Origin: Hyphomicrobiaceae bacterium
GTDB lineage: Bacteria; Pseudomonadota; Alphaproteobacteria; Rhizobiales; Hyphomicrobiaceae
Direction of reading: 5' to 3'
Length of the DNA: 64,000 bases
NCBI GenBank assembly: GCA_013141255.1
Contig: JABFRJ010000318.1
Span: forward strand, 1,053-65,052
In this document: positions 15,923 to 32,237 of the stretch, piece by piece
Position numbering within the stretch: position 1 is the first letter of the stretch
Layout of the letters: each line of letters starts with the position of its first letter
The notes under the pieces: model-generated
What the model saw: the letters and a program-made list of their open reading frames with translations, nothing else
Databases searched by the model: none
Told to the model about the DNA's origin: nothing
Position numbers and translations under genes: made by a program

Positions 15923-15966
15923 AAACTCGCCACAAAAGCGTTCGCAATATTTTAACGGTATGCAGA

Positions 15967-15987: not shown

Positions 15988-16000
15988 CACGCATTATTGT

Positions 16001-16146: not shown

Positions 16147-16180
16147 GCAGCAAATAGAAACAAGCCAATCATCAACGCAA

Positions 16181-16218
16181 AACGCGCTTCGAACGATAGA
16201 AGCGCGTTGCAATTTTTA
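16181..16218. terminator. Hairpin between the sRNA candidate and the convergent STAS gene (possibly a bidirectional terminator)
   Basis: AACGCGCTTC-gaacgata-GAAGCGCGTT forms a 10-bp stem. It is followed on + by gcaATTTTTAT and on - by TTGCGTTGATG. Confidence 0.4.
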
Positions 16219-16259
16219 TGTATAAGCCTGCAGCCGTTCGGCAAACGCTTGCAATGCGC

Positions 16260-16682
16260 TCAAGCCGCGTCGCGCCGTTGATGTCCGTCATCCACGATCA
16301 CAGAGTGCGGCGCAGTCAGCGCAGCTGGCTGAACAATAACGGTTGATGCCATACTGTGTGAAAGGCGTGCTGCGCTTTCCGCCATGGCATCTTCGCGAAG
16401 AGCAACCCAGCGCGGCGTTTGCAGAACTTGCAGCATGCCACTTTTGCTCAACAAGTCACGCGCCACACCACTGGTGTTAACGATGATCAATTCTCGTTGT
16501 GCTTTCGACAAACGCTTATACAGACTTGCGAGCGCTCCAACGCCTGCTCCATCAAATGTTTGAACATCCACCATATCGATGGTCACGTCGTTTTTTTCTT
16601 CTGCAAGGGCTTCTATGTCTGCAAATACGACTGGCAATCCATACGAGTCAAAACGCGCGGGGGCGCGATAAATGGTCGGCAT
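16260..16682 (-). CDS. Single-domain STAS protein (anti-sigma-factor-antagonist-like)
   Basis: From ATG 16682: MPTIYRAPARFDSYGLPVVFADIEALAEEKNDVTIDMVDVQTFDGAGVGALASLYKRLSKAQRELIIVNTSGVARDLLSKSGMLQVL. This is a STAS fold pattern. The usual DSSG phospho-serine position reads DGAG. Confidence 0.75.
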   Translation of the reverse strand: MPTIYRAPARFDSYGLPVVFADIEALAEEKNDVTIDMVDVQTFDGAGVGALASLYKRLSKAQRELIIVNTSGVARDLLSKSGMLQVLQTPRWVALREDAMAESAARLSHSMASTVIVQPAALTAPHSVIVDDGHQRRDAA

Positions 16683-16886
16683 AATCTTACTAAAGCTCCG
16701 CACGAAGACGATTTGCTGGCACCGCATACACTTTGTGAGTTGGCAGGTACAATACTTTGAAAGTCATCTGCAATGCTACATAACAGCACGACGACTGGAT
16801 CACTTTCTATATTAAGGGATAACACTTATCGTGATGCATCAGCATCAACAGATGCGTAGCAAATATCCACGTCACTATTGCGACAC

Positions 16887-17921
16887 TTAACGCAACGCTC
16901 GCCCAAGGGCCACTTCATAGACCTTCAGGATTTCAGGGAACCACCTTGTTTCAGAAAAGTGCTCGCGCGCCCGCGTCCAGCACGCCGCACGCAAATCCAT
17001 CGCGCCATGCTCAACTTGAGCCGACCACATAGACAGACACTGTCCAGCAGATTCCAAATCGCCATAAGGAAACATCCAACCCGTTGCCCCCTCAACAATC
17101 ACGGTAGGCAACCCGCCAACCCGCGATGCTAAAACAGGGACTCCAGCCGCCGCCGCCTCCAGTGCAGCCAACGGTACCCCTTCGAACCGCGACGGCATAA
17201 CCAACAAACCTAACTGTGGCCAGACGCGGTCCATGTTCGTTTGCACTCCATGGAAGGTCACCACGTCGCCAAACTCTGCCTCAAGTGCTCCACGCATGGC
17301 TCCATCGCCATAAACATGCCAACTACCAAGATCACCGAACCGTCGTGCAAGCATACAAAAATGCTGCGGTCCCTTTTCCTCACTTAACCGACCCACAAAT
17401 CCAATTTTGCGGGGCAATGCCAAATCCGGACAAACAGTGGGCGTCACAACGTAACTCGGTATAACCGTGGTCGATAAAGGTAACCGACTCTGAATTTCCG
17501 AACTTACCGCAATTCGATGGGCAGAAAATGATGACCAATCGTCAACGAAGTCATATGCCCCAACCGGCCACGGTCCACGCTGACCAGAATGAAACGTCGT
17601 AACAACTGGAATCCTGGTTAACATCGCCGCCAGTCGCCCTAATATCCCACTCTTATATCCATGTGTATGTACGAGAGAAGGCTGTTCTGAGCGCAGCGCG
17701 AGCACTAAACCACCGAATGTACCATCCAAAACGCTGTAAGGAATCCCCTCAGCATCGAGTTGCCGCAGCCAAGGATTGTCCCCGTGGCGTTGGTAAAGCA
17801 TAACGCGAACGGCATGCGCATCGCGCATCAAACTGCCTGCGACCGTTGCAATATGCCGTTCAGCCCCCCCAACGCTGCTACTATCGATTAAATGCCAGAT
17901 CATCACAAAACTAAGTCTCAC
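16887..17921 (-). CDS. Glycosyltransferase family 4 (GT-B)
   Basis: N-terminal SSSVGGAERHI and C-terminal GT1/GT4 signature (PSRFEGVPLAALEAAAAGVPVLASRVGGLPTVIVEGATGWMF). Confidence 0.9.
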   Translation of the reverse strand: MRLSFVMIWHLIDSSSVGGAERHIATVAGSLMRDAHAVRVMLYQRHGDNPWLRQLDAEGIPYSVLDGTFGGLVLALRSEQPSLVHTHGYKSGILGRLAAMLTRIPVVTTFHSGQRGPWPVGAYDFVDDWSSFSAHRIAVSSEIQSRLPLSTTVIPSYVVTPTVCPDLALPRKIGFVGRLSEEKGPQHFCMLARRFGDLGSWHVYGDGAMRGALEAEFGDVVTFHGVQTNMDRVWPQLGLLVMPSRFEGVPLAALEAAAAGVPVLASRVGGLPTVIVEGATGWMFPYGDLESAGQCLSMWSAQVEHGAMDLRAACWTRAREHFSETRWFPEILKVYEVALGRALR

Positions 17922-18189
17922 CAGAAGGAAAAGATGCAGAGCGCGTTACACGAACCGTGCAAAGTCTGCGATTTTACCAAGAAAAGCCAAGAACAACAGG
18001 TTCCGTTTTGTCTTGAGCTTAAGATCATGTATGACCAAACGCGATCAGAGCTATTGAATTCGTCGATAATCTTATCGAACTGAAGCGGCGATAACGCCGC
18101 AGTGTCAGAGCTACGTCTGACGCGTAAGGAACGTGACCGTCCAAGCCATATGCTTGGCGTCAAAAACAACTAAAATGACGTTTGCGTAG

Positions 18190-19710
18190 GTGGTTTCCAC
18201 AATGTGGCAAAAAATTCAGAACAATTGGCAAGGCCTCTTACTGGCAACCGCCGCAGGCATTTTGCTTACTCAAGGCCTCCAAGCTCAGTCTCGACCTTCG
18301 AACGCACCGCATCGGATTGAAGATAGCGCCCGCCCGATTGGCCAACCAAGTCGGTTAGACATTGGTCGCGCTCAAACAACACTGGAACGGATCGCAACGG
18401 GTACAGCTAAGTCATTACCTCAGGCAACCACACGCCACAACTCAGACTTCAACAACAATTCGCCATTGATCGTCACTGAGGCCAAACCTGCCCCAGCAGG
18501 CAAAGTGGATGATGTGCGCTCCGCCCCGATTTCAGCCCCGGTTGTCGCCCCAACCGCAACAGTGCCCTCAGCGTCTATGGTCTCCGCAACATCGACGGCA
18601 TCCACTTCGACCGAACCATTGGACATTGCCGGCGCCGAGCGCATCAACATTAAATTCCAAGGCCAACCGGAGCTATCGGGCGACTACCGCGTCAATGATG
18701 ACCAAACGATTTCGGTGCCCGTCGTAGGACGAATGTCAATTGCTCGTCTCGACGCGGCCGCTCTTGAATTAGCTCTTGCAGATCGCGTATCGCGATTGAC
18801 CGGTCGCGAAGCCTACGTCACGGTCGAAGTCGCAGAGTATCGCCCCGTCTTCGTATCCGGCTACGTCAGCCGCCCCGGAACAGCGCCTTGGAAACCGGGC
18901 CTCACGGTTTTGCAAGCCATAACTATTGCTGGCGGCGACTTCCGCAGCAGCGCCTCAGGTGGCGATAACTTCAGCCTTCGTGTGCAGCGCGCAGTTGACG
19001 ATCAGAAACGCATCTTTGCTCAAGTCGCTCGCCTTGAGGCCGAACGAGCGGGTGCTACAAAAATCGCAATACCCGAGCGTCTGGTTGCTCGCGTAGGCAC
19101 TCAACAAGCCAAGGAACTGATCGACGCTCAAAACTCGGTCTTTGCCAGCCGCCGGAGTGCGTCGGACGCCCAAATCGCAGGCCTGGAACGCGCCATCGAT
19201 CTCACCAAAACTGAGTTTGAAGGCATGAGCTCTCAAAAGAAGCGGCTCGCCGAACAACTTGATGCACGAAGAGGACAACTGGCACGATTAAAAAGTGTCT
19301 ATGACAAAGGGCTTCTCCGCAACGATCGCCTTGTCGATGAGCAAATAAAAATGGCAGATCTTGAAGAAAAAATTGCGTCCGTCGGCGTCTCAACCGCTCG
19401 CGCCTCGAGCACTTTGGTTGGTCTCGAACGTGAACTCGCCAACGCTCGGCAAGATCGCAATGCTGCAATTGATGCTGAACTGCTAAAGCTCGAACGAGAT
19501 GTCGCCCAACTGGACCTCGAAATCCAGAGTCTCGGCGTGACATCGTCCAAACCGATTCTAACCAGCACCAGCAAGGACGGTAAGGACGGAAAAGATAGCG
19601 TGATTTATGAAATAGTACGTCAGGACCGCACTGGCCCGCGCACGATTGTAGCAGACCGTTATTCACTTTTGCGCCCGGGTGACATGGTCGTCGTCAGCAT
19701 GAAACAATAA
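18190..19710 (+). CDS. Outer-membrane polysaccharide export (OPX, Wza-like) protein with long internal coiled coil
   Basis: Signal peptide (LLLATAAGILLTQGLQAQS) and an S/A/P/T-rich linker. Poly_export plus SLBB segment (GDYRVNDDQTISVPVVGRMSIARL...YVTVEVAEYRPVFVSGYVSRPGTAPWKPGLTVLQAITIAGG). About 220 aa of heptad-like coiled coil, then a terminal beta-grasp-like tail (LLRPGDMVVVS). GTG at 18190 or ATG at 18202. Confidence 0.85.
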   Translation: MVSTMWQKIQNNWQGLLLATAAGILLTQGLQAQSRPSNAPHRIEDSARPIGQPSRLDIGRAQTTLERIATGTAKSLPQATTRHNSDFNNNSPLIVTEAKPAPAGKVDDVRSAPISAPVVAPTATVPSASMVSATSTASTSTEPLDIAGAERINIKFQGQPELSGDYRVNDDQTISVPVVGRMSIARLDAAALELALADRVSRLTGREAYVTVEVAEYRPVFVSGYVSRPGTAPWKPGLTVLQAITIAGGDFRSSASGGDNFSLRVQRAVDDQKRIFAQVARLEAERAGATKIAIPERLVARVGTQQAKELIDAQNSVFASRRSASDAQIAGLERAIDLTKTEFEGMSSQKKRLAEQLDARRGQLARLKSVYDKGLLRNDRLVDEQIKMADLEEKIASVGVSTARASSTLVGLERELANARQDRNAAIDAELLKLERDVAQLDLEIQSLGVTSSKPILTSTSKDGKDGKDSVIYEIVRQDRTGPRTIVADRYSLLRPGDMVVVSMKQ

Positions 19711-19794
19711 GCAACTCGACGTCCCAAACATCAGCAACGTCGCCGACTGCAGGCCCATACCGTGTATCCAATTGAATAAGCCAGAAGAAAGTGC

Positions 19795-20847
19795 ATGAAA
19801 GCCAGTAAGTTAAAATTTCTGGAAACTGCAAAACGCACGGGCTTGTTCGATCTCGCTCGTCGACGCTCTTCCACTGGCGTGCGCATTTTAAATTATCACG
19901 GCATTTGGACGGGCTCGGACCCATACGCTGGCGACAGCATGTTTTTTACTGACACGGGCTTCACGCGTAGACTTGAGCTAATCAGAGCTTGGGGCTATCC
20001 GGTTGTATCGCTCGGCGATGCGATCGATCATTTGTCAGGCCAAAAAGCCATTCCCCCAAATGCCGTCGTCATAACAATCGACGATGGTTGGTACAGCAGC
20101 TACAAGGATATGTTTCCAAAGCTGCACCAACATGGAATGCCGTTTACACTATATTGCGACACAGGCCACCTCTACACTCCTGGCGTAATTCCCCACGTTG
20201 CTGCTATGTATTTTAAAATACTTGCGAACCAACGCAATGACCAATCAGAGCGAAACATCGCGCTCGAACGACCACTAAAGTCAGTCGCCACAGACCGCAG
20301 CCGGAGTTATGCCGAGCGTCTTGACGCTACGGAAAAATTGGCAAAACTACTCGGATTTGATTTCACGCGATACATGGCCGACAAGACTTTTCATTACATG
20401 TCACCATCAGAGCTGGTTGAAGCCGCAAGCAATCCAGATGTTTCCATTGAATTGCACACTCACAATCACACGCTACGTGATTGGAGCCGGAACGCAATCG
20501 AACAAGAAATTGCACTCAATCGAGCAGCGCTCGCCGATTTACTTAAACGACCACCAACTTCCTTTAAGCATTTTTGCTACCCCAGTGGGGCATACACGCC
20601 CGAAGCCGCAGAGATCATCAAATCGCTTGGGATAAAGAGTGCAACAACGACGAACCAAGGCATCGCCACAGTAGGCACTTCACTGCTCATGCTCCCACGT
20701 CTCTGTGACAACGAGATGCTCACAGAGATCGAATTTGAAGCTGAACTTTCGGGCTTTGCTGATTGGATGCGTCTTAGCCGCACGGTTGTTCCAAATTCAA
20801 AGGCACAATCGATAGGCACCACGCGATCAGCTTTTTGCCTAGCATAA
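19795..20847 (+). CDS. Polysaccharide deacetylase (NodB homology, CE4-like)
   Basis: NodB motifs VVITIDDGWYSSY and IELHTHNHT. 350 aa. Confidence 0.88.
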   Translation: MKASKLKFLETAKRTGLFDLARRRSSTGVRILNYHGIWTGSDPYAGDSMFFTDTGFTRRLELIRAWGYPVVSLGDAIDHLSGQKAIPPNAVVITIDDGWYSSYKDMFPKLHQHGMPFTLYCDTGHLYTPGVIPHVAAMYFKILANQRNDQSERNIALERPLKSVATDRSRSYAERLDATEKLAKLLGFDFTRYMADKTFHYMSPSELVEAASNPDVSIELHTHNHTLRDWSRNAIEQEIALNRAALADLLKRPPTSFKHFCYPSGAYTPEAAEIIKSLGIKSATTTNQGIATVGTSLLMLPRLCDNEMLTEIEFEAELSGFADWMRLSRTVVPNSKAQSIGTTRSAFCLA

Positions 20848-20868
20848 CGTGCAACGGAGCGCGCAAAC

Positions 20869-22470
20869 ATGAAGCTAATTGCGCTCCGAACGCGCTTTCG
20901 CAATCGGCCACATTGCAGTCTGGCACCTGCGGCAATCGCAATGTGCGTCGGACTACTGACGGTCATGGCACTGTACCCAGAGCCGATCACACCACTCGCG
21001 TTCGCCATACTCCCTATTGCTGGCCTCGCCTGCTACTATTTCCCGGTCCAAATTGTAATACTGGCAATCGCCGTTACTGTATTTCGAATTCACGAGGCCT
21101 ATCCATCTCTTCGCCCGACAAAGCTCCCGCTTGCCTTCGGCGCACTCGCGACGGCGACAATTTTTCTACACTTCGTTGTCTTAAGGACCGAACGGCCTTA
21201 TTGGAATCGCACCCTCACCTACTTCGCGATTTTACTCGGATGCATCTTACTCAGCGCAATATTCGCAGAAAGCCCAACACTATCGATCGATTTCGTTACG
21301 ATCTTATATTGGAAAATTATATTACTCGTCGTCGGCCTAGCCTGGCTCTTGCGCAGACCAGAGCATTTCGATTTTGCTGCCCGCATTTTCGTTCTAAGCG
21401 GCATCGCCCTCGCAGGTCGTGCAATCTATAACTGGATCAACAGTATTGCGCTAATCGAAGTTGGTCGCGTAACAATCGGCCCTGCTGATGCTCACTCAAA
21501 CATCGAGAACTGGTCAGACCCAACTGGCATGTTATCGACGTTGGGCGACTCTAACGATTTAGCGCTGTATCTAATTTTGCCGTTAAGTTTTGCCGTCGCC
21601 ATGGCGGTGACACGCAGCAGTCGCATGACAAACATCTTAGGCATTGCTGCATCCGCGGTCATTCTTCTCGCCATAATCATCACCCAAAGCTGCGGCGGCC
21701 TGCTGGGTGTTTCCGTTCTTTTCGGCACAATCATCTACACCGTTTCAAAATCCAAGGTCATGATACTCACAGCAATATGTGTAGGCGGCCTCGCCCTCTC
21801 GGCGGCAATCAGCTTCAGCCGTCACATCTCCAGTGTGACTGAATCCGCAATCGAGCGCGGCCTGGATGAAAGTACCCAAGGACGCATCGACAACTGGCTT
21901 ACATCTGTCTATATGGCGGTTAAACGACCTCAAGTTGGCGTTGGAATTAGCAATTTCATGGATAGTTACTACCGCTTTACCGATACTCCACGCCGCCGCG
22001 ACAAGGCCGTCCATAGCATCTGGTTTCAAGTGATAGGCGAACTTGGGTTTGTCGCTTTTGGCATCCTTGTTGCTATGTTCGCCACTTTGGTAAAAATGTC
22101 GACCACCAACCTCCAAATCCTCAAGTCTGTAAGTTCCGTGCCACCCAGTCTGCACGTGATAGGCATTGCCTCGATAGGCGCGCTCGCAGGCTTTATGGTT
22201 GCCCGCTCGTTCCTGACCCAAGCATTCAACTGGGCGCTGAACATCACTTTTGCGCTCCTAGTCGCCACAATACACGCCCTGCAGAAGTACGCCCCTTCTG
22301 ATGCGCAGAAGCTCAAACAAGCCTCAAATAAATCGACAACTCACTCCAAGTCATTTGTGTCCCATTTTACTTATTCCGATCCAAAATCGATCAATACAAA
22401 CAGTACCATTAAACAGACCGTTGCAACGCGAAGCCGCCCAAATTGGCCCACCAGCGCGTTGCCGCAATGA
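20869..22470 (+). CDS. O-antigen ligase-like / Wzy_C-domain membrane protein, paralog 1
   Basis: 533 aa and polytopic. Wzy_C signature AVHSIWFQVIGELGF. The conserved T-Q-S-R-G-G motif reads TQSCGG (Cys275, codon 21691-21693). Confidence 0.85.
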   Translation: MKLIALRTRFRNRPHCSLAPAAIAMCVGLLTVMALYPEPITPLAFAILPIAGLACYYFPVQIVILAIAVTVFRIHEAYPSLRPTKLPLAFGALATATIFLHFVVLRTERPYWNRTLTYFAILLGCILLSAIFAESPTLSIDFVTILYWKIILLVVGLAWLLRRPEHFDFAARIFVLSGIALAGRAIYNWINSIALIEVGRVTIGPADAHSNIENWSDPTGMLSTLGDSNDLALYLILPLSFAVAMAVTRSSRMTNILGIAASAVILLAIIITQSCGGLLGVSVLFGTIIYTVSKSKVMILTAICVGGLALSAAISFSRHISSVTESAIERGLDESTQGRIDNWLTSVYMAVKRPQVGVGISNFMDSYYRFTDTPRRRDKAVHSIWFQVIGELGFVAFGILVAMFATLVKMSTTNLQILKSVSSVPPSLHVIGIASIGALAGFMVARSFLTQAFNWALNITFALLVATIHALQKYAPSDAQKLKQASNKSTTHSKSFVSHFTYSDPKSINTNSTIKQTVATRSRPNWPTSALPQ

Positions 22471-22748
22471 AGGAACACTTGTCAAGAAAGCACGCATCCA
22501 CGCGCCTACCGAGGCGACAGCCAGTCGACACCGTTTAACAATTACAAACCTACGACAATCCGGCACAGATCATGAAGGTAACGTGCTGGAAGTTAGCCTA
22601 CCTGACCGCCTAGCAATGCCGTGCGCTGAATCGCTAAATCGACACGTTCAAGAACAATGGTTAAGCAACGGCAACTGAACTGTACAAACATACCAATAGC
22701 ACGGCATTCGTTAACCGAGCTGTAGCGTACATTGTGAGCCAATAAAGA

Positions 22749-24269
22749 ATGCCGCGCGCCGTCAACTACGACCCATCAGTATATCCCATCGCTCAGCATT
22801 ACAGCGCGTTAGCTGTTGCTGCGTGCTTCGCTGTCCTCACCGCGCTATATTTTGATCATTCCCCCCTCTCAATCGTCGCCGCGGCTGCGTTACCACTCGC
22901 TCTGCTTATAAGCATACAATCCCCAATTTTGGTTTGCGTGCTCTTTGTGTCAATCACGTTCTTTCGGATTCACGAGGCCTATCCGTTCCTAGAACCGCTA
23001 AAATTGCCGTTTGCATTCGGCTCGCTAATGTTCACGTCACTCGCTTTGCAGTGGCTAGTAATGGGTCGCATCGTCCCCTTTTGGATGCCAGAGTTACGAT
23101 ATCTAGTCGGGTTATTTGTATTGATCACAATCGGTGTCATTTTCGCAAAAAACCGTCAGGTTGCTTGGAACTTCTATAGCGACGTTTACTGGAAAATCGT
23201 TCTGGTTACATTCGCTGTCGCCTGGATCACGCGCACGACGGACGACTTCAACAAAATTTCCCGCATTCTTGTTTTGAGCGGAATCGCTATCGCCGCAGTC
23301 GCAATCTACAATAAAACCTACGGCATTGGCCTTGTCGAAGGCACACGCGTGACAATCGCACGCAAACCTCGTCGAGAAGAACTGGTCGGTGAGTTCGATC
23401 CCCTTGAGTCTGTTTCAACTCTTTCAGATCCTAACGATCTGGCGCTCATCCTTCTATTTCCACTCGCGTTTGCCATTTCAAGCTTGGTCTATCGCTCCGG
23501 CGTCATCAACACCGTTCTTGGATTAACCGGCACAGTAACGACCACGCTTGCAATTATCTTCACCCAAAGCCGTGGTGGTTTACTCGGAATTCTGGCAATT
23601 CTCGGCGTCATGGGATTGCGCACGATAAAATCGCGAACGGTCGTGATATCGCTAGGCGTGGCCGCTGCCCTCGGCCTAGCGGTTGCAATGGGTATCTCAA
23701 GCCGCGTCTCCGGCGGGGCCCAAGAAATCTCCGAAAGCGGTATTGACGACAGCTCACTCGGCCGCATCATTGCTTGGCGAGCCGCAATCGCCATGGCCGT
23801 AGCAAGGCCACTAAATGGCGTTGGTATTAACAACTTTATTGACAGTTACCACTTCTTTTCAGAAGTTCCCAATCGCCGAGAAAAAGCAGTACACAGCACG
23901 TGGTTTCAAGTTCTTGCCGAAACTGGCTTCCCCGGCTTCATCGTCTTTGTCACAATGCTCGTTATCACATTTAAAACAGCGATCGTTACTCTTATGCGAC
24001 TGAGCATCGCTCAAGCGCCACCGATACTGACAGCAACCGCGCTATCACTCGTTGCTGGTCTCGCCAGCTTTTGCGCAGCCGGTACGTTTCTAACGCAAGC
24101 CTTCACCCTACCGATTTATATCTTAATCGGCTTGACCGTTGCTCTATCGCGCGCATCAGAGCGACACCACAACAATCAATCATTAGACGACGTCTCTGTA
24201 CCATGGCACCCCACCCCTCCACTCCGTCCAATTTACCGCCATTTACCAACATTTGGTCGGCAAAAATAA
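22749..24269 (+). CDS. O-antigen ligase-like / Wzy_C-domain membrane protein, paralog 2
   Basis: 506 aa and collinear with paralog 1: FRIHEAYP, LVLSGIAIA, TQSRGGLLG (Arg275, codon 23571-23573), AVHSTWFQVLAETGF. Confidence 0.85.
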   Translation: MPRAVNYDPSVYPIAQHYSALAVAACFAVLTALYFDHSPLSIVAAAALPLALLISIQSPILVCVLFVSITFFRIHEAYPFLEPLKLPFAFGSLMFTSLALQWLVMGRIVPFWMPELRYLVGLFVLITIGVIFAKNRQVAWNFYSDVYWKIVLVTFAVAWITRTTDDFNKISRILVLSGIAIAAVAIYNKTYGIGLVEGTRVTIARKPRREELVGEFDPLESVSTLSDPNDLALILLFPLAFAISSLVYRSGVINTVLGLTGTVTTTLAIIFTQSRGGLLGILAILGVMGLRTIKSRTVVISLGVAAALGLAVAMGISSRVSGGAQEISESGIDDSSLGRIIAWRAAIAMAVARPLNGVGINNFIDSYHFFSEVPNRREKAVHSTWFQVLAETGFPGFIVFVTMLVITFKTAIVTLMRLSIAQAPPILTATALSLVAGLASFCAAGTFLTQAFTLPIYILIGLTVALSRASERHHNNQSLDDVSVPWHPTPPLRPIYRHLPTFGRQK

Positions 24270-24478
24270 ACGCCTTTGCAGTCTCACTCGAAATCGCCAA
24301 CCAGAGGCAGATGACACGCCCAAAACTCACATCTCATGATACGCCATGGCGCATCAGTCACATCCGCCGATATGACGTCGAACGAAACCCAACCAGTATC
24401 AAACAATCTACCAAAAGCTTCACATCCATATCAACAAACTTAAACGCCTCACGGATGTGACGAAGGACAAAGAAGACG

Positions 24479-25252
24479 ATGTCGCTGCTCGCAAACAAAG
24501 TCGCTAAATTGCGCCGGTGGGTCAAAAGCCAAGACTCCCCCGCAGCCAACGCAATCTACCGTATTGCCAAAGGCGCTCGTGGTATCTCCATTCCCTCGGT
24601 TCGTGCGATTCATTCGCCGCTCTATATGCTACATCGAGCAACGCAGATGGCATTTGCGAACGCTAAGCGCGCGATTTGGGTGACGCCACTCTTTCAATCA
24701 CAACTCCAAGCACCTGCGCCACGCCTCAATCTGTACGGGACACTACCCTTTATCCAGGGCAATGTGACAATGACGATTGGGGCCGATTGCCGGATCGGTG
24801 GTCGCACCAATTTCGCCGGTCGCACAGCCAGTCACCCTACGCCAGAAATTATCATTGGCAACAATTGCGACATTGGCTTCATGAATGTGCTCAGTTGCGG
24901 CAGCCGTATCCATATCGGCAACAACGTGCGGCTTGCGGCCTACGTCCAACTCGTCGGCTATCCGGGCCATCCCATTGACGTCGACGCCCGTGCTCTCGGC
25001 GCGCCCGATACCGACGATCAAGTCGGCGACATCATCCTTGAAGACGACGTATGGTTAGCGACACGCGTCACCGTTAATCGCGGCGTACGAATAGGTCGCG
25101 GAACCATTGTGGCAACCGGCAGCGTTGTCACTTCGGATCTCCCACCTTTCGTTCTCGCGGCGGGCATTCCAGCGCGGATTATCAAAAATTTACCTCAACC
25201 AAATACGCACGCGGCGCTGCCCACCAAAGCCTCAGCCCCACAAGCGGCATAA
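24479..25252 (+). CDS. Left-handed beta-helix (hexapeptide) O-acetyltransferase, WcaF/MAT-like
   Basis: Hexapeptide repeats across IGADCRIGGRTNF...IGNNCDIGFMNVL...IGNNVRLAAYVQL...LEDDVWLATRVTVNRGVRIGRGTIVATGSVV. Confidence 0.85.
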   Translation: MSLLANKVAKLRRWVKSQDSPAANAIYRIAKGARGISIPSVRAIHSPLYMLHRATQMAFANAKRAIWVTPLFQSQLQAPAPRLNLYGTLPFIQGNVTMTIGADCRIGGRTNFAGRTASHPTPEIIIGNNCDIGFMNVLSCGSRIHIGNNVRLAAYVQLVGYPGHPIDVDARALGAPDTDDQVGDIILEDDVWLATRVTVNRGVRIGRGTIVATGSVVTSDLPPFVLAAGIPARIIKNLPQPNTHAALPTKASAPQAA

Positions 25253-25285
25253 AATTGCGCTCAACATACCAAAGCGAGTTTCATC

Positions 25286-26515
25286 GTGCGTTCGTTATTC
25301 CTCACTACACGCCAATTTTGGCCTCTAGATACCGGTGGCAAGCTTCGAGATTTTCACCTCGCCCGTCAACTCGCCGCCCATGCGCAAGTTACTTACGTCT
25401 GCTTTCGAGACGGCAACGACACGTCTCCGTGCCCACCCGATCTTGCCGCACCTTTTGCACGCGTGATTGTTCTCGATCGCCCTCCGCAATACACAAAAAC
25501 TACACTCGTTCGTGGGCTCCTAAGTCGCCAGCCTGCCAATGTCATCAATTATACAACACGTGAGATGAGCAACGCGCTACGGCAGTTGTTCAACGAGCAA
25601 CGCTTCGACACCATTCAGGTCGAAAACGTGTTTATGTCGGGCTACATGCAGCTACTCCGCGACGCACCAGGGCACCCCCGCATCATTACGGATTGGCACA
25701 ACATAGAATCCGAACTTATGGCACGATATGCGGCCTTTATCCCAAATCCCGCCAAACGCTTCTATGCGAGTGAAACCGCGAGACGACTACGTTTTGCAGA
25801 AGCCGATCAAATCAGACTTTCCGACATCCTCCTCGTAACCTCAAGTCGCGAGCGCGATGCACTCGTTAAGCAAGGCGTCCACATTCCTATTCATATCGTC
25901 GAAAATGGTGTCGATGCGTCGCAATTTGAAAACATTGAACACCGCCAAGACAAGGCATCCGGTAAAGACAATCCAAATATCATCTTCGTTGGATCGATGG
26001 ACTATCACGCGAACGTGGACGCCGTACTTGAGTTTGTTACGGAAAGTTGGCCGACAATTCGCGCCGCTCAACCTGACCTAGATTTAAAAATAGTTGGACG
26101 CCGCCCCCCACCGTCTATTCAGGCCTTAGCCTCAAGGCCCGGCGTTATTGTCACTGGCAGCATTCCTGACGTCCGCCCCTTCTATCGTGGTGCCATTGCC
26201 TCCATAGTGCCCTTACGCATCGGCGGCGGCACACGTTTAAAAATTCTTGAAGCATTCGCAGCACGCACACCAGTCATATCGACCACATTAGGGGCCGAGG
26301 GCTTAGCAGCCCGTCACGACGAACATCTTTTAATTGCTGAAACCACCAGCGATTTTATTGCAGCGATCACAAAATTGCGTACCGACGCCAAGAAATGCAC
26401 GGCCTTGATCAATGCCGGTCATAGTCTCGTCAAATCAATCTACGATTGGCCTGTCGTTGGACGCGATCTAGGTGGCATCCACAATGCCGCACGTACTTCA
26501 TCTCGGGCAGCATAG
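25286..26515 (+). CDS. Glycosyltransferase family 4 (GT-B)
   Basis: GTG start. C-terminal GT1/GT4 pattern (IIFVGSMDYHANVDAV...IVPLRIGGGTRLKILEAFAARTPVISTTLGAEGL). Confidence 0.9.
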   Translation: MRSLFLTTRQFWPLDTGGKLRDFHLARQLAAHAQVTYVCFRDGNDTSPCPPDLAAPFARVIVLDRPPQYTKTTLVRGLLSRQPANVINYTTREMSNALRQLFNEQRFDTIQVENVFMSGYMQLLRDAPGHPRIITDWHNIESELMARYAAFIPNPAKRFYASETARRLRFAEADQIRLSDILLVTSSRERDALVKQGVHIPIHIVENGVDASQFENIEHRQDKASGKDNPNIIFVGSMDYHANVDAVLEFVTESWPTIRAAQPDLDLKIVGRRPPPSIQALASRPGVIVTGSIPDVRPFYRGAIASIVPLRIGGGTRLKILEAFAARTPVISTTLGAEGLAARHDEHLLIAETTSDFIAAITKLRTDAKKCTALINAGHSLVKSIYDWPVVGRDLGGIHNAARTSSRAA

Positions 26516-26530
26516 CCCCGCAGAGGTCGA

Positions 26531-29500
26531 ATGACATATTTCTTACGGGTGCTTGCAGCTGTTGCTTTACTTGCATCAGCCATATCGGACGCGAAAGCTA
26601 TCGACCTTGGCGGCGGCGCGATGCCCGTTGCGTTCGAACCCAACAAGCCAATTTCCTTGCCAGCAGCGGGCGAAATTCGCATCGATGGCGTCGTAACGAG
26701 CCCTACACCAGTCACACTGATTTTGCGTATCGATGACGGACAGTCGACCAGTTATTCCTCAAGAATGAATGACGAACGCGGGCTCCCGCCGGGACCATTC
26801 TCACTACGATTTGATGTAGCAAATCTCCAAGCGTCGAATGGACGTCGCCTAAATCCAACAGACATCCGACGGGCCATTGTTTTCATCAATGGCGCAGGTA
26901 CAGGTCGCATAACTCGCTTCGATGTTGTGGAAAAAACATCTGCAGCGTCGGTCATCTCACCCAATCCCCAATCAGCGTCAACTCTCGTTGAGATCGGCAC
27001 GGGCTTTCTGCCAATTTCATTCGAACCGAAACAAACAGTAATGCTGCCTACAACGGGTGAAATCCGCATTGACGGCTTAAACACAGGCACCGCGCCGTTT
27101 AATCTCGTCATTCGAATCGACGACGCACTCTCATCCGATTACATGTCACGGATGAACGACGAACGATCAGTCGCACCAGGCCCCTTCTCACTGCGATTCG
27201 ATACAAGCCACTTAAAGGCAACAAATGGTCGCGTACTCGATCCGACCCGCATCATACGAGTAATTGCCTTCGTCAATGGCGATGGTGTCGGCACCGTCAC
27301 GCGATTCAACGCAGCTCCAAAAATTGGCCCAACGCCTGCGGCAACAACACGCCCGACCGCTCCCGAAACGCAAACAGTGGGTTCCACCGTCACCTTTGCG
27401 ACAGGTCCATTCCCAAGCGCATTCGAACCCGACCACCCCGTCGCATTGCCTCCGGCACAAACATTACAACTCGAAGGCACTATCGATAGCCCAACACCAG
27501 CTCTACTTGTACTACGCATCGACGATGGTCAATCAGTCGACTACGCGTCTCGCATGAACGATGAACGCGAAGTGCCACCCGGGCCCTTCTCGCTCGAGTA
27601 CGATACCAGCAACTTACGCGCAAAAAACGGGCGCGTGCTGAACCCAAGCGACATTAGACGCATCATCGCCTTTATAGATGGAGCGGGCAGTGGCACAATC
27701 ATGCGCTTTGCCGTTACCCCCAAAGCGAATACCACGTCGGCATCACACACCGACGCGGCAGCGCAACCAAGTTCGATCACAATCAAACCAGGCGAAGCAC
27801 GCGCATTTGGAAAAGGCCCGTTGCCTATAGTTTTTGAACCAGACCGCCCCGTGAGCCTGACAGCAACCCACGAACTACGCATCAATGGCACAATCTCAGG
27901 CCCCACCGCCGCAACACTGATACTACGCGTCGACGATGCAGAAACGACCGATTATCAATCACGCATGAATTTAGAACACGCCCTAAAGCCAGGGCCGTTT
28001 TCAATTCGGATCGATGTTGCCAACCTTAGAACAAGCAACGGACGATCCATCAAAGCGACTAACATTACGCGCGTGATAGCATTCATAAATGGATCAGGCA
28101 CCGCAATCGCTACCCGTTTCGATGTTGGACCAAAAGACGGCCCTGCCATCCCTTTGGCATCCTCCAGCACACCAGCAAAAAACAAATCTGCGAGCTCAAT
28201 CAAATCCGGCCCAAAACTGATCGGTCCGCAAACCTTGTCGACCGGAACACTACCGATAAAGTACGATCCATCCACGCCAGTCGCGTTTGGTGACGCCGAT
28301 GAAATTCGCGTCGAGGGCTTCAACGACGGTAAAGAGCCAGCAGCAGTTGCGCTCCGCATTGATGACGGTCAATCCAGCGGCTATCCATCACGCTTCAATG
28401 ACGAGCGCATGCTTCCGCCTGGACCATTCAAGTTACGTATCGGCCTCAAAGGCTTAAAAGCGCCTAGTGGTCGCATACTTGACCATGGCGACATCAGACG
28501 CATTCACTTGTTCCCATGGCAAGGATCTCCCAACGTCCGTATTGTCAAATTTGAAACGGGTCGAGGCCGAACGCTGCCGTTGGGCGCAACGGGCTACGCC
28601 CTTGGTGCAGACAATGCTCCTCTGCACCCCGGCTTCGAACGAATTGCGCCAGGCGATCAACGCATTGGTGCGCGTGGCACAACCGAGGCAATTCGTAGAC
28701 CTGCACCCGATCCGCTTGTCGCCAATGGCTTGCGCGGCATTCGTACATTGACACTTCTGGCACCAAAAGGTCGTGTTCGCGTAACCATCTGGAGCGAAGA
28801 TCCTGGCGAATGGGAAGAACTGCCGCGCGAGTTTGAACGCCGCATTCGCGTCAATGGCAAAGATGCCTGGATCCATAAGATGTCCGCTGACCAATGGATA
28901 TCAGAGCGCTACCTTCGCGGCTCTAAAACCGAGCACTCAACCACAGACGATGCTTGGACAGCTTATGGAAAGCATCGCGGCAATAGGCGTTGGCTCGATG
29001 TCGACGCCCCCAAAGGAACTGTCGTCATAGAGCTTTCAGGCGCCGAAGCATCGGCATATTACCTATCAGCCGTCTTGATCGAACCCGCGCCGACGAATAC
29101 ATCTGACAAGACAGAATCGCCTAGCCAAGCATTAGTCGAGACCCAACGCGCTGAGTGGTATCAATCCAACTATCCCGTAGCTGAGTACAAAATCGGCAAC
29201 AACGACGGCGGCACGCCAATCGCATTACACTGGTCAGACGCGACCCAATCAAGAACTGCACCAATTACCATTAAAACCGCCCCCGACAGCGGTGCGGGCA
29301 TCCGCCTTGACGTGACCTCCGATGCAACACTCGAAAAGCCACGCATCACCATTACCCCTCCAATCCGTGCCAACGAACAGATCCCAACTACGATCTGGGC
29401 ATCCGAACTGCGCCTCGAACGCGACAGTACTGTTCTAAAACTGACTGACAATCGTTTGATTGCCGACACTACGTTGCGGCCCCTCAAAGCCAACAACATG

Positions 29501-30604
29501 CGCAGTTACGAACTCTGGTTTGACATCGCCAAAGGCTCACCACCGGGTGCCTATCTCGGTTATGTGACCTTTTACAACGGCAAACGCGAAATACGGATCC
29601 CCATCGAGATCACCGTTCTCGCAGTCGAACTACCTCTGCCCTCCAAACCGTCCGGCTTCTACCTCGCGCGAGCGCCACATCTCAGCTATTTCCCCGGTCT
29701 CGCTATTGCGCGCGACCAACAACTTGGCTGCGATTTAGAGTTCATGCGACGCTTCGGACTTTCCAATACCGCTCCGCCCATTGCCGGGCTAGATCGGCAA
29801 GATTTGACTGTCTTCGGAACCGATATGCGTCGCCCAGGTGGCGGTGGCGCACAGGTGACTCCAGGGTGGCTGATTTACAATCCCTTGGTCGAACTCCACA
29901 AACGCCACGGATCAAATCGGGGCGCGGAAATTGTCGCGAGATTAGAAACAATGATCAAAGCGGCAGCACTCCCACAACCGCTATGGAGCGTGGCAGACGA
30001 ACCATCAAATCCTGACCAAACCCCAGGTGAACTCGACCAATGGGTAAAGGCGCTTCGCGCCGCAAGCCCCGGCATTAAACTCGCGGGTCACCTAAACACG
30101 CCAAAAGATGATCGTTACGCGCCGCTCTTTGACACCCTTATAATTAATCAAGCGTTTGGTATTGAGGCTGCCAACATCTCCAAGTATACGAAGTCGGGCA
30201 ACAAAGTCTGGCTCTATAACACCTTCGCTCATCGCTTGACGGCCGGACACTGGCTCTGGAACACGCCTGCTGAGCGCTATGTCCAATGGCACGCGCGCAT
30301 GCCAACCGCCGACCCGTTCGACCCCATAGACGGCCGTGAGGCCGATTTTCAGGTCATTTATCCCACTGCACAAGTTTGCCCAAAAACGCCTGACATTAAC
30401 CGCGATTTATTGCGCTTGGCAGAGGGCGTTGTTGATCAGCGATGGCTACTTTGGCTTGAACACCAACCAACACGCAAAGCCCGCCAATTAACGGCAGAGT
30501 TGCGTACACTTTTTGCAGGGAGCTTTGAAAAGGTGCAAAAAACGTCGCGAACTGACCTTATCGAGATCAGAAACCGGATCATGGATGTGTTCGGATCACC
30601 ATGA
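26531..30604 (+). CDS. Large secreted protein: signal peptide, 5 tandem uncharacterised ~130-143-aa domains, and a C-terminal glycoside-hydrolase-like module
   Basis: 1357-aa ORF with AGAGG 5 nt upstream of the ATG. Signal peptide MTYFLRVLAAVALLASAISDAKA. See the repeat feature and findings for the domain structure. The C-terminal part contains an Ig-like segment (YELWFDIAKGSPPGAYLGYVTFYNGKREIRIPIEITV) and a barrel-like segment with WSVADEPSNP. Confidence 0.9.
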   Translation: MTYFLRVLAAVALLASAISDAKAIDLGGGAMPVAFEPNKPISLPAAGEIRIDGVVTSPTPVTLILRIDDGQSTSYSSRMNDERGLPPGPFSLRFDVANLQASNGRRLNPTDIRRAIVFINGAGTGRITRFDVVEKTSAASVISPNPQSASTLVEIGTGFLPISFEPKQTVMLPTTGEIRIDGLNTGTAPFNLVIRIDDALSSDYMSRMNDERSVAPGPFSLRFDTSHLKATNGRVLDPTRIIRVIAFVNGDGVGTVTRFNAAPKIGPTPAATTRPTAPETQTVGSTVTFATGPFPSAFEPDHPVALPPAQTLQLEGTIDSPTPALLVLRIDDGQSVDYASRMNDEREVPPGPFSLEYDTSNLRAKNGRVLNPSDIRRIIAFIDGAGSGTIMRFAVTPKANTTSASHTDAAAQPSSITIKPGEARAFGKGPLPIVFEPDRPVSLTATHELRINGTISGPTAATLILRVDDAETTDYQSRMNLEHALKPGPFSIRIDVANLRTSNGRSIKATNITRVIAFINGSGTAIATRFDVGPKDGPAIPLASSSTPAKNKSASSIKSGPKLIGPQTLSTGTLPIKYDPSTPVAFGDADEIRVEGFNDGKEPAAVALRIDDGQSSGYPSRFNDERMLPPGPFKLRIGLKGLKAPSGRILDHGDIRRIHLFPWQGSPNVRIVKFETGRGRTLPLGATGYALGADNAPLHPGFERIAPGDQRIGARGTTEAIRRPAPDPLVANGLRGIRTLTLLAPKGRVRVTIWSEDPGEWEELPREFERRIRVNGKDAWIHKMSADQWISERYLRGSKTEHSTTDDAWTAYGKHRGNRRWLDVDAPKGTVVIELSGAEASAYYLSAVLIEPAPTNTSDKTESPSQALVETQRAEWYQSNYPVAEYKIGNNDGGTPIALHWSDATQSRTAPITIKTAPDSGAGIRLDVTSDATLEKPRITITPPIRANEQIPTTIWASELRLERDSTVLKLTDNRLIADTTLRPLKANNMRSYELWFDIAKGSPPGAYLGYVTFYNGKREIRIPIEITVLAVELPLPSKPSGFYLARAPHLSYFPGLAIARDQQLGCDLEFMRRFGLSNTAPPIAGLDRQDLTVFGTDMRRPGGGGAQVTPGWLIYNPLVELHKRHGSNRGAEIVARLETMIKAAALPQPLWSVADEPSNPDQTPGELDQWVKALRAASPGIKLAGHLNTPKDDRYAPLFDTLIINQAFGIEAANISKYTKSGNKVWLYNTFAHRLTAGHWLWNTPAERYVQWHARMPTADPFDPIDGREADFQVIYPTAQVCPKTPDINRDLLRLAEGVVDQRWLLWLEHQPTRKARQLTAELRTLFAGSFEKVQKTSRTDLIEIRNRIMDVFGSP
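26609..28558 (+). repeat. Intragenic tandem repeat: five diverged copies of a ~390-430-bp (130-143-aa) coding unit
   Basis: Repeat anchors are FEP at aa 35, 164, 298 and 435, and YDP at aa 578. Shared motif: FEPxxPxxLP..EIRIDG...LxLRIDDGQSxxYxSRMNDERxxPPGPFSLRFDxxNLxAxNGRxLxPxDIRRxIAFINGxGxGxIxRF. Approximate cores are 26621-26926, 27008-27313, 27410-27715, 27821-28126 and 28250-28558. Copies 1-4 are roughly 50-60 percent identical by eye, and copy 5 is more diverged. Confidence 0.85.
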
Positions 30605-30753
30605 CGCATTCATTAACTTAAAATTCGTCATTATGGTCCGCCTCAATCCATATATCGAGTAGGAACCCGCCTGCTACTGAAGTGTATACAGCTCCGAACC
30701 ACCCGAATAATGGTTTTCGCGCTGCAAAGTATTGAGTTGAGAGGATCACGAAC

Positions 30754-32172
30754 GTGAAGGTAAATCTGGCAGAAGACCTCAAGTATATCATTGAGGTTGT
30801 GTGGAGACGCCGTCGGCTCCTAATACTTCCACTTGCGATCCTACTTCCGTTAACGATAGCAGCATCATATTTTCTGCCCCGAACCTACGCGAGTCGTGCT
30901 CTTTTAATCATGCAAGAACAGGGGTCCGACAACCCGCTGATGAAGACACAGACTTCAACTGAACGCATCCGCGAACGTGCGCCCGGTCTCCAGGCCTTGC
31001 TGAAAAGCGAGCGCGTCTTATTGAACGCGTTGCGCGACATTAAAGGCGAGGACATGCCCACCGACCCTCGAGCCATCGCACTCGAACTCCAAGACCTCGA
31101 CAAGCAATTGTCGTTCGAAATGGTCGGTTCCGATTTTTTGGACATCCAGCTCAAAGGCGCAAAATCGGTAGGTCTCGGTCGTCAACTTGAAGCCATTACG
31201 TCTCGCTTTCTCGAAAGCATGCTGACGCCCGATCAGGACGCCATGAGCGCGACGCAGGTGCTACAAGACAAGCGCAAAGAAGATGTGGTTACAGCCGAAA
31301 AGGCACTCGCCAAGTTCAAGGATCAGATCGGCGAGCGCACGTTGGCCGCTATTGCCGCAAGTCAAAAACGAGTTGCTGAAGTCGGCTCAAACACCAATCG
31401 CGTCGAAGCTGATATAGCGGCAACGACGACCGACATTGAACAACTCAAAAAATCAATTGGAATAACAGCGGACACCCGTCCTGAAGCCGCGATGGAGGGA
31501 TTACTCCGCCAAGGCAACGTCGAAATTCTCGAACTAGAAAAGCGCGGAGCTGCAGGTGCACCGCTTATCGAGCGCGCACGGTCAAAGCTTGTGGCACTCC
31601 GTCGCATCCAAGCTCAGGAGGCACGCTTCGCCGATCTTCAGCGCGAGCTTAATGAGGTCAAACGCCTCGTGGTCGATAGCCAAAGAGCAGCAACCGATGC
31701 GCGAACCCCTGAAGGACAGCTGCGACGCCTCGAAAAGGACCTTGCGGAAGCAAAGATACAATTCGAAACATATCTTCGCCGTTTCCCATCAGCTACCAGC
31801 AGCCGCTCGCTACAGGTATTGCGTGCGCCGGAACGCATCCGCGTCATCGACGCCCCTCGAGACCCCGAGTTCCCTTTAACATCGCGCCTTAAGTATATCC
31901 TCGCAGGTGCGGTTGCCGCACTTCTGCTTTCAGTCGGGCTCGCAGCAAGCGCCGAAGCACTCGATCAACGCGTACGACGCGCACGGGATTTCGAGAACAT
32001 CACCGGCCTACCTGTGGTCGCTCGATTGCCAGCCGCCATTCCAGAGCCAGTTGTCCTCGACGAGTTTCAAGAACCGGTGCCTTCGCCCCAGAAAAAAGCA
32101 TCTTGGAAAGGCAATGGCAGCTTATCAAATCTGCCAATCCTTCCGGTTAAGCCGCATCAAAGCGCAGCATAA
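30754..32172 (+). CDS. Polysaccharide co-polymerase / chain-length determinant (Wzz/GumC family) without kinase domain
   Basis: GTG start with GAGGA upstream. N-terminal Wzz motif with TM1 (RRRRLLILPLAILLPLTIAASYFLPRTYAS), a long periplasmic coiled coil and TM2 (YILAGAVAALLLSVGLAASAEAL). It ends with a ~75-aa tail and has no Walker motifs. Confidence 0.85.
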   Translation: MKVNLAEDLKYIIEVVWRRRRLLILPLAILLPLTIAASYFLPRTYASRALLIMQEQGSDNPLMKTQTSTERIRERAPGLQALLKSERVLLNALRDIKGEDMPTDPRAIALELQDLDKQLSFEMVGSDFLDIQLKGAKSVGLGRQLEAITSRFLESMLTPDQDAMSATQVLQDKRKEDVVTAEKALAKFKDQIGERTLAAIAASQKRVAEVGSNTNRVEADIAATTTDIEQLKKSIGITADTRPEAAMEGLLRQGNVEILELEKRGAAGAPLIERARSKLVALRRIQAQEARFADLQRELNEVKRLVVDSQRAATDARTPEGQLRRLEKDLAEAKIQFETYLRRFPSATSSRSLQVLRAPERIRVIDAPRDPEFPLTSRLKYILAGAVAALLLSVGLAASAEALDQRVRRARDFENITGLPVVARLPAAIPEPVVLDEFQEPVPSPQKKASWKGNGSLSNLPILPVKPHQSAA

Positions 32173-32201
32173 TCCATTACCAGTCCGATACCCAGTTAAA
32201 G

Positions 32202-32237
32202 GGCCATATCTGAACATCGATATGGTCCTCAATTTTA
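32202..32237 (+). terminator. Probable rho-independent terminator closing the polysaccharide locus
   Basis: GGCCATAT-10 nt-ATATGG(T)CC with one bulge, followed by TCAATTTTAT. Confidence 0.5.

Follow-up and report, generated by a model that had tools for sequence, protein, structure and literature searches.

The DNA analysed here is a window of 64,000 nucleotides on contig C218 of a 3.9-Mb metagenome-assembled genome (MAG, here G000; 562 contigs, 86% complete). Its source is an uncultured alphaproteobacterium, and for the locus under study its nearest relatives are MAGs of the Hyphomicrobiaceae. The locus consists of ten intact open reading frames (ORFs), namely a STAS-domain protein and a glycosyltransferase of family 4 (GT4) and, read divergently, an outer-membrane polysaccharide export protein (OPX), a NodB deacetylase, two Wzy_C proteins (Wzy1 and Wzy2), a hexapeptide acetyltransferase, another GT4, a secreted giant protein of 1357 aa and a polysaccharide co-polymerase (PCP). 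An earlier note on this DNA had listed these genes with their domains, and both the coordinates (ORF check of the window) and the domain calls (Pfam and NCBIfam) were reproduced (Table 1), as was the terminator that it placed on the right, where a hairpin follows the PCP stop codon. The gene content also supports its description of a Wzy-type surface-polysaccharide locus that is incomplete in cis. We propose that this locus is probably one half of a two-part exopolysaccharide (EPS) system of the syp/scv type, linked to undecaprenyl phosphate (Und-P) and Wzy-dependent, and that the window thus holds a reduced, split alphaproteobacterial variant of a known family, not a holdfast locus.

Table 1. 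Features of the main locus on contig C218 (the window) and of the second sub-locus on contig C245, with the evidence for each. GT2, glycosyltransferase of family 2; PHPT, polyprenyl-phosphate hexose-1-phosphate transferase; LbH, left-handed beta-helix; CBM, carbohydrate-binding module; GH, glycoside hydrolase; TM, transmembrane; AF2, AlphaFold2; BY-kinase, bacterial tyrosine kinase.
Feature	Contig	Positions	Strand	Basis
Two intrinsic-terminator-like hairpins with T-runs, left boundary, in the LysR-STAS gap	C218	16116-16147, 16181-16216	+	hairpin scan
STAS protein, SypA-like, single-domain; phospho-site motif DGAG with Ala61 at nt 16545-16547	C218	16260-16727	-	Pfam STAS 48 bits
GT4 paired with the STAS gene; kept in about 40 related loci	C218	16887-17921	-	Pfam and locus comparison
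OPX, ExoF-type: signal peptide, S/T/A/P-rich linker, Poly_export, SLBB, AprE/HlyD-type helical hairpin (coiled coil, residues 273-459)	C218	18190-19710	+	Pfam, NCBIfam
CE4/NodB deacetylase without signal peptide; DD and HxxxH motifs kept	C218	19795-20847	+	Pfam, NCBIfam
Wzy1, extra fast-evolving Wzy_C paralogue	C218	20869-22470	+	Pfam, tree
Wzy2, SypL-like Wzy_C polymerase	C218	22749-24269	+	Pfam, identities, tree
Hexapeptide (LbH) acetyltransferase, SypM-like	C218	24479-25252	+	Pfam, NCBIfam; 49/80 loci at 41-61% identity
GT4 of TIGR03087 (stp1) type, SypN position	C218	25286-26515	+	NCBIfam 255 bits (cut-off 316)
Secreted 1357-aa giant protein: signal peptide, five CBM-like modules (nt 26600-28564), beta-sandwich domains and GH123-fold TIM barrel (D1156-E1157 at nt 29996-30001)	C218	26531-30604	+	AF2, Foldseek, alignment
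PCP, SypO-like: two TM segments, periplasmic coiled coil, no kinase domain	C218	30754-32172	+	Wzz 25 bits, TIGR03007 87 bits
Intrinsic-terminator-like hairpin (32200-32229) followed by T-run, right boundary, directly 3' of PCP stop	C218	32200-32237	+	hairpin scan
SypP-like GT4	C245			43% identical to Aliidongia in-locus gene
GT2-PHPT fusion, 608 aa	C245			47% identical over full length to Aliidongia; Bac_transf 185 bits
SypD-like P-loop protein (x232), 232 aa	C245	4068-4766	-	TIGR01007 52 bits, weak BY-kinase/ParA signature
Hybrid histidine kinase, 1177 aa, PAS_7-HisKA-HATPase-REC	C245	274-3807	-	

Relatives of the giant protein, for which one genome per species was scanned, occur in at least 186 genomes. 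The carriers belong to the Alphaproteobacteria (Hyphomicrobiales, Rhodospirillales, Acetobacteraceae, Reyranellaceae, Stella, Nisaea, and Pseudovibrio) and to the Gammaproteobacteria (Aeromonas, Plesiomonas, Parasalinivibrio, Endozoicomonas, and Sedimenticola). The protein, which the earlier note had described as without counterpart in holdfast and UPP loci, is thus a conserved member of a family of syp-like loci. The best 80 of these loci were compared with the window proteins and with additional proteins of the Aliidongia locus. The most frequent neighbours of the giant gene were the PCP (58-60 of 80 loci), the hexapeptide acetyltransferase (49), Wzy_C (46), the STAS-linked GT4 (about 40), the flippase Wzx (39), and a second, SypP-like GT4 (36-45), followed by the GT2-PHPT protein (25), a SypE-like protein composed of response regulator (RR), PP2C and HATPase_c_2 domains (18-24), a small P-loop protein (20), and a sigma-54 RR (18). 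At least four distinct kinds of syp-like genes surround the giant gene in 46 of the 57 loci of at least 15 kb.

The recurring gene order in these loci is Wzx-Wzy-Hexapep-GT-giant-PCP. In Aliidongia the locus reads OPX, STAS, GT4, GT2, GT4, Wzx, Wzy_C, Hexapep, GT4, and giant gene, continuing with x168, a PCP-like gene, GT4, GT2-PHPT, the SypE-like gene, a sigma-54 RR and a hybrid histidine kinase, which corresponds to the order K-L-M-N-(giant)-O-P-Q/R-E-G-F of the syp cluster when set against the published sypA-R gene list (PMC6420764; Table S1 of PMC8941931). Aeromonas sobria CECT 4245, which has been published as an scv-positive strain (PMC8941931), also carries one of the related loci. As for the window proteins themselves, Wzy2 is 54-57% identical to its counterparts in the nearest loci and 41-44% identical to those of Parasalinivibrio and Aeromonas, the acetyltransferase reaches 41-50% with the same two genera, and the PCP aligns over its full length with the protein in SypO position in Parasalinivibrio (24% identity, E 3e-36). 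The SypL-SypM-SypO block is collinear with the Vibrionaceae and Aeromonas loci. The system resembles syp of Vibrio (Aliivibrio) fischeri, scv of V. parahaemolyticus and rbd of V. vulnificus in having a STAS protein (SypA) at the locus edge, a block of Wzy_C (SypL), hexapeptide acetyltransferase (SypM), GT and PCP-like SypO, and a set of GT4 (SypP), GT2 (SypQ), PHPT (SypR) and a small ParA/BY-kinase-like SypD. In our genome the first of these, the SypA-like single-domain STAS protein, is present in the locus with its phospho-serine replaced by Ala, and SypP, SypQ and SypR are represented in trans, on contig C245.

The earlier note had remarked that an initiating PHPT, a Wzx flippase and a BY-kinase were missing from the whole window, and this is correct, as C218 gave no match for PHPT (PF02397), Wzx (PF01943) or BY-kinase (TIGR01007) and all matches of the genome fall on other contigs, including its single PF00953 (WecA/MraY-type) match. 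When the whole genome was searched by tblastn with the Aliidongia in-locus proteins, an operon appeared on the 10-kb contig C245, adjoining purN, which encodes a SypP-like GT4, a GT2-PHPT fusion and a SypD-like P-loop protein, x232. The genome search for the three missing functions has in this way recovered the PHPT and a BY-kinase-like protein; no SypK-type Wzx was found. The GT2-PHPT orthologue is also present in the three sister genomes (58-61% identity). In one of these, G001, purN is followed by the same GT4 - GT2-PHPT - x232 block on a 456-kb contig and the main locus is found on a different contig of 1.1 Mb. The split architecture is therefore real and conserved, at least in G000 and G001, because the same block stands on a separate contig in the latter. 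The trio is also present in G002 and G003, where purN is not beside it; in G003 purN instead borders the main locus on its STAS side. This suggests an ancestral arrangement with purN between the two sub-loci, which different rearrangements then broke up. Coordinates of purN are 8352-9038 in L104 (C245), 7559-8149 in L111 and 2-511 in L027.

The x232 protein deserves some attention with regard to the missing kinase. In several related loci a homologue is encoded directly 3' of the PCP. All 22 sequences aligned have another residue in place of the Walker A lysine (G-V/T/A-S/T, not G-K-S/T), and the C245 protein and its 20 homologues in L030-L099 have no C-terminal tyrosine cluster and share instead a conserved basic C-terminal helix. 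Judging from these motifs, x232, a SypD-like protein, is probably no kinase but a pseudo-kinase or a pseudo-ATPase adaptor. Directly downstream of its gene on C245 lies the hybrid histidine kinase of Table 1, which we considered as a candidate SypF orthologue and rejected, as the similarity (25-30%) covers the generic kinase core alone and G001 does not show this adjacency.

The earlier note had called the locus atypically composed, and the literature on scv speaks against taking this as a sign of novelty. Among published scv variants are fused ScvN-ScvO proteins, loci whose parts lie 15 to 1612 kb from each other, and loci that have lost SypE, SypF, SypM, ScvI (Wzx) or ScvK; some vibrios have no ScvI and V. 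parahaemolyticus has no SypE (PMC8941931). The earlier note had also said that it would be refuted if the same set proved to be a characterised EPS cluster, and this has partly come true. The family is genetically characterised, although only in distant Gammaproteobacteria; its published range covers 26 gammaproteobacterial and 2 alphaproteobacterial genera, all of them water-dwelling, and the host here is Hyphomicrobiaceae-like.

Against these likenesses there are clear departures from syp/scv. The window locus has an ExoF-type OPX instead of the SypC type and no SypB; it has gained, by addition or replacement, a NodB deacetylase, a second Wzy_C and an stp1-type GT4; and there is no sigma-54 activator or promoter, SypE, SypF, or SypK. 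Beginning with the OPX, this type is common to just 9 of the 80 related loci. The homologues found under the name ExoF carry PF25994 and PF02563 and are 26-42% identical to the window protein, which shares with Sinorhizobium succinoglycan ExoF the Poly_export and SLBB domains and the AprE/HlyD-type helical hairpin (HH_AprE). ExoF works with ExoP; the window OPX differs in its long S/T/A/P-rich N-terminal linker and in having as partner a kinase-less SypO-like PCP. The coiled coil of the OPX, a possible novelty at first sight, is ordinary ExoF architecture. Another ExoF-type OPX paralogue of the genome is encoded on C315 (4830-6008) and is 26% identical over residues 135-504, hairpin included.

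Among the 80 loci the NodB deacetylase is limited to the nearest clade and one other locus, and it stands between the OPX and Wzy_C genes, at the spot that Wzx occupies in related loci such as L030. The two Wzy_C proteins are 38.7% identical to each other. Where related loci have a single Wzy_C gene, this is orthologous to Wzy2, and Wzy1 was seen only in G000 among the loci sampled; it nests with Wzy2 and its closest orthologues with full support (100/100) on a much longer branch (2.53 vs 0.4), and its exact placement is uncertain because of this long branch. Two sister Hyphomicrobiaceae loci, L026 and L027, are otherwise collinear and have no Wzy_C between deacetylase and acetyltransferase, so that their polymerase must be encoded elsewhere or be dispensable. 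The stp1-like GT4 is not homologous to the GT found at the same position in G001 (E 0.05), whose identity is 53% with the Aliidongia GT and 44% with that of Parasalinivibrio. The stp1-like gene is a non-orthologous displacement, shared with L025 and L026.

Regulation seems to have changed as well. In an alignment of locus-linked STAS proteins all 17 related sequences read DSSG or DGSG at the phospho-site, and the window protein reads DGAG. We take its Ala61 to be the equivalent of Ser56 of SypA, by way of the canonical STAS motif. In V. fischeri the S56A variant of SypA is active (PMC4517449). Since an Ala occupies the phospho-site and no SypE-like kinase/phosphatase is encoded in the genome, the STAS protein would be permanently "on". 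Matches resembling sigma-54 sites number 58 over the window (41.5 expected), and sigma-54 control of the locus was considered and rejected, as the divergent promoter region has no such site.

Several of these observations weigh against assigning the locus to the syp/scv family and have to be set beside the synteny. No OPX of the SypC multi-SLBB type was found, the protein being ExoF-type, and a SypN-type GT is absent from the window locus. The Ser-to-Ala change of the STAS protein was seen in this MAG alone. There is no SypE-like protein in G000, with receiver-domain matches only in G001-G003; no sigma-54 activator (SypG/ScvE) exists in either sub-locus, and a scan of the promoter region 17922-18189 for TGGCAC-N5-TTGCW with two mismatches allowed returned no -24/-12 element. 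With the in-locus Wzx proteins of Aliidongia and L030 as queries, no SypK-type Wzx turned up in G000 or the three sister genomes, and no flippase can be assigned to the system; five other Polysacc_synt genes exist in G000. At 86% completeness the absence of a gene is no proof, though the three sister genomes agree. Moreover, the functional link between C218 and C245 is drawn from synteny in other genomes, orthology to the V. fischeri Syp proteins would be reached through the loci of Aliidongia, Parasalinivibrio and A. sobria CECT 4245, and the best NCBIfam matches of five proteins are XrtA/PEP-CTERM-associated families, all under their cut-offs.

The giant protein is the most interesting element of the locus. 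In this protein, which has no match in Pfam or NCBIfam, a Sec-type signal peptide is followed by five repeats, each of about 112 residues and connected by S/A/P/T-rich linkers, and by a core of roughly 680 residues. The protein has 67 protein-cluster relatives, which are all unnamed and without Pfam domains. They fall into length classes of about 800, 950, 1090, 1230, and 1360 aa, corresponding to one to five N-terminal modules, and the window protein carries the maximal number seen in the family. The repeat is homologous to the single N-terminal domain of every family member; a model of one module is a beta-sandwich (pLDDT 97) that weakly resembles CBM X584, the N-terminal domain of GH50 agarase and CBM11 (E about 5e-4).

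The last module and the core were modelled together by AF2 with high confidence (pLDDT 89.8, pTM 0.89), and the model shows a beta-sandwich followed by a (beta/alpha)8 barrel. The best matches of the core in the Protein Data Bank (PDB), by Foldseek, are all GH123-type beta-N-acetylgalactosaminidases: BvGH123 (5l7u, E 9e-19), NgaDssm (8k2j, TM 0.64), and CpNga123. At the sequence level the relationship is marginal in a profile search of the PDB (E 0.002), identity to the GH123 enzymes is 11-14%, and the window protein does not match the GH123 sequence model PF13320. Across the family, the Pfam models GH123_cat/GH123_N match just 2-3 of 38 members (PF13320 weakly in 2 of 38, best E 0.0015); three gammaproteobacterial homologues carry PF13320, some of them with the UniRef name "Glycoside hydrolase 123 C-terminal domain".

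A motif WSVADEP, containing D1156-E1157, is invariant in 38 sequences; it closes a barrel strand (592-597 of the AF2 model) and aligns with the WSIANEP motif of GH2, whose NEP we take to bear the acid/base Glu of clan GH-A. The core has no acidic residue at the strand end where the nucleophile of that clan would sit. Adjacent Asp-Glu residues are typical of substrate-assisted hexosaminidases such as those of GH20 and GH123, which act on N-acetylhexosamines (HexNAc). By analogy, Asp-Glu in the place of Asn-Glu, together with the empty nucleophile position, fits substrate-assisted catalysis on 2-acetamido sugars. Going by the models, we regard the giant protein as a secreted GH123-fold enzyme with five CBM-like modules and a putative hydrolase role. 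It is like BvGH123, CpNga123 and the NgaDssm/NgaCa/NgaAt groups in its fold, and its adjacent Asp-Glu at the end of a barrel strand may correspond to their catalytic pair; it differs in its extra beta domain, in the one to five N-terminal modules, and in being encoded inside an EPS biosynthesis locus, not a catabolic one. Several polymers are made by operons that also encode a periplasmic or secreted glycosidase (PslG, PelA, BcsZ, and the PgaB C-terminal domain), to which the giant protein may be a functional analogue, one set apart by its GH123-like fold and its tandem CBM-like array.

The giant protein was also considered as SypO itself. This was rejected, because SypO/ScvL is named "polysaccharide export protein" (Table S1 of PMC8941931) and the homologues found include none from Aliivibrio or Vibrio. 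In Parasalinivibrio, too, the PCP-like and giant genes are neighbours yet separate. The giant gene is thus an accessory gene of the syp-like locus family, and the scv survey mentions no hydrolase (PMC8941931). In four Endozoicomonas loci (L093, L094, L096, and L098) and in L089 and L031 a GH123-fold homologue is present and the 10 kb to its left and right are free of syp-like genes, so that the protein family is not strictly tied to syp-type loci.

Taking both sub-loci together, a pathway can be proposed. The GT2-PHPT fusion (SypQ-SypR-like) of C245 would prime Und-P, the SypP-like GT4 would act next with it, both being encoded beside the SypD-like P-loop protein, and the two GT4s of the window would finish a repeat unit that probably contains HexNAc. 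The SypM-like acetyltransferase and the NodB deacetylase, which has no signal peptide, would modify this unit on the cytoplasmic side. Some flippase would then translocate it, there being no dedicated SypK-type Wzx in the clade. Wzy2 would polymerise, perhaps with the participation of the divergent Wzy1, and the SypO-like PCP and SypD-like protein would couple polymerisation to export through the ExoF-type OPX. Outside the cell, the five CBM-like modules may hold the GH123-fold enzyme on the polymer, where it could trim or release chains by substrate-assisted cleavage of beta-HexNAc linkages. The SypA-like STAS protein would serve as a post-transcriptional activator in a permanently active state. 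That acetylated HexNAc is handled, as the earlier note had supposed, is probable from the combination of CE4 deacetylase, LbH acetyltransferase and GH123-fold enzyme with its Asp-Glu pair. Outside hints are the weak match of the GT2 domain of the fusion to PgaC/IcaA and the published link of ScvN (SypQ) to the synthesis of poly-N-acetylglucosamine (PNAG; PMC8941931).

A bolder extension, which we put forward only tentatively and which may well not hold, is that the GH123-fold family is a hitherto unrecognised dedicated glycosidase of syp/scv polysaccharides in many Alpha- and Gammaproteobacteria, implying beta-linked HexNAc, and that the Hyphomicrobiaceae-type clade has been rewired and deregulated (STAS locked "on", no SypE, SypG or dedicated Wzx), its glycosidase tethered by up to five new CBM-like modules.

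Other explanations of the locus have been weighed. It is improbable, to begin with, that one of the Wzy_C paralogues, Wzy1 being the likeliest, is an O-oligosaccharyltransferase of the PglL/PilO type that decorates the linkers of the giant protein and the OPX. The Wzy_C family does include such enzymes, Wzy1 has a weak TfpM match (E 5e-5), S/A/P/T-rich linkers separate the five repeats and occur in the OPX N-terminus, and the extra long-branch copy is found in a genome with the maximal repeat number of the family. However, about 46 related loci pair a single Wzy_C with Wzx and PCP and with one-module, linker-free enzymes, which fits a polymerase, and Wzy1 nests inside the SypL-like clade. Glycosylation of the linkers is hypothetical, and its attribution to Wzy1 is not the parsimonious reading.

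Decay offers a different view, in which the locus would be a non-functional remnant of a syp-like cluster after loss of primer, flippase and regulators. The absence of PHPT, Wzx, SypE and SypG, the mutated STAS phospho-site and the sister loci L026 and L027 without Wzy all point that way, and we still regard it as quite improbable, for the ten ORFs are all intact, the deacetylase keeps its catalytic motifs and the GH123-fold protein its putative ones, the same reduced architecture is found in at least five divergent genomes at 47-63% protein identity, and the primer operon is conserved in trans in four of four genomes.

The holdfast or unipolar polysaccharide (UPP) affiliation of the earlier note, i.e., a polar adhesin of partly deacetylated HexNAc resembling Caulobacter hfs or Agrobacterium upp, now appears very unlikely. 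A deacetylase without signal peptide, as in HfsH, two Wzy_C paralogues reminiscent of HfsC/HfsI, and the presence of OPX, PCP and acetyltransferase in an alphaproteobacterial host made it attractive. Yet none of the ten proteins is matched by an NCBIfam model of the Hfs type, and the cognate PHPT on C245 scores 123 bits with the HfsE model, for which the cut-off is 750. In the hfs set the PHPT is HfsE, the flippase HfsF and the export proteins HfsA, HfsB and HfsD, and here neither PHPT nor flippase is present in cis. HfsK is a GNAT protein and the acetyltransferase here is of the LbH hexapeptide class. The two holdfast-like features, deacetylase and second Wzy_C, joined a syp-like core late and only in this clade or genome, the STAS, SypE-like and sigma-54 partners of the related loci have no hfs/upp counterpart, and the relatives follow Vibrio syp/scv gene by gene. 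Just as unlikely is an exosortase (XrtA)/PEP-CTERM-associated EPS locus of the Methylobacillus eps type, suggested by the best NCBIfam matches (stp1 255, stp2 184 for the C245 GT4, EpsB_2 215, PEP_O_lig_1 88 and 115, pepcterm_ChnLen 87, and pepcterm_export 41 bits), since these are all under curated cut-offs, no exosortase (PF09721) was found in the 86% of G000 that is covered, and the relatives carry STAS, SypE-like and SypG-like regulators and not the EpsH/EpsI set.

The consequences reach beyond this genome. Host colonisation and the control of biofilms are studied with the syp/scv polysaccharide as a model, and to our knowledge the chemical structure of this polymer has not been determined. 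A conserved GH123-fold enzyme in many of the loci points to beta-HexNAc chemistry and could be of use as a specific probe or dispersal enzyme. Syp-like systems range far past aquatic Gammaproteobacteria, into Hyphomicrobiales, Rhodospirillales, Acetobacteraceae, and others. There are natural variants without SypE, the STAS phospho-serine, sigma-54 control and a dedicated flippase, and they define a minimal core for the action of SypA, the target of which is still unknown (PMC4517449). For annotation, the lesson is that a Wzy locus which looks "incomplete" can have its complement in a conserved primer operon of three genes at another site of the same genome. What makes the present example most attractive is the combination of a conserved glycosidase fold with an amplified CBM-like module.

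The locus is set among housekeeping genes, with an amidase, a thioredoxin-reductase-like gene and a LysR regulator on the left and DUF2948, hisD, UPF0262 and Maf on the right. The gap between LysR and STAS (15923-16259, 337 bp) has no ORF and holds both strong plus-strand hairpins. The earlier note had called these small RNA (sRNA) terminators; the two terminator-like hairpins are there, and the sRNA was that reader's inference, since Rfam gave zero family matches anywhere in the window. One or two small transcripts may be encoded here, or the hairpins may serve the STAS operon as a bidirectional terminator.

The impression of a somewhat AT-rich locus was borne out. Its GC content of 52.7% is below that of the remaining window (55.0%) and that of the genome as a whole (56.5%), and per-gene GC z-scores run from -0.2 to -2.75, lowest in the deacetylase and the two Wzy_C genes. 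The AT-richness is thus real but mild, and codon usage is normal, the distances of the locus genes falling between the 26th and 88th percentile of the genome background. Recent horizontal transfer was considered and is unsupported, with codon usage inside the genome background and only a mild GC dip.

Elsewhere in the genome, a separate EPS locus with OPX, GT4, and PHPT was seen on C535. Over the whole window (1-64000), GC skew is negative in all 2-kb windows (-0.07 to -0.23) and AT skew is mostly positive, both across the two coding strands.

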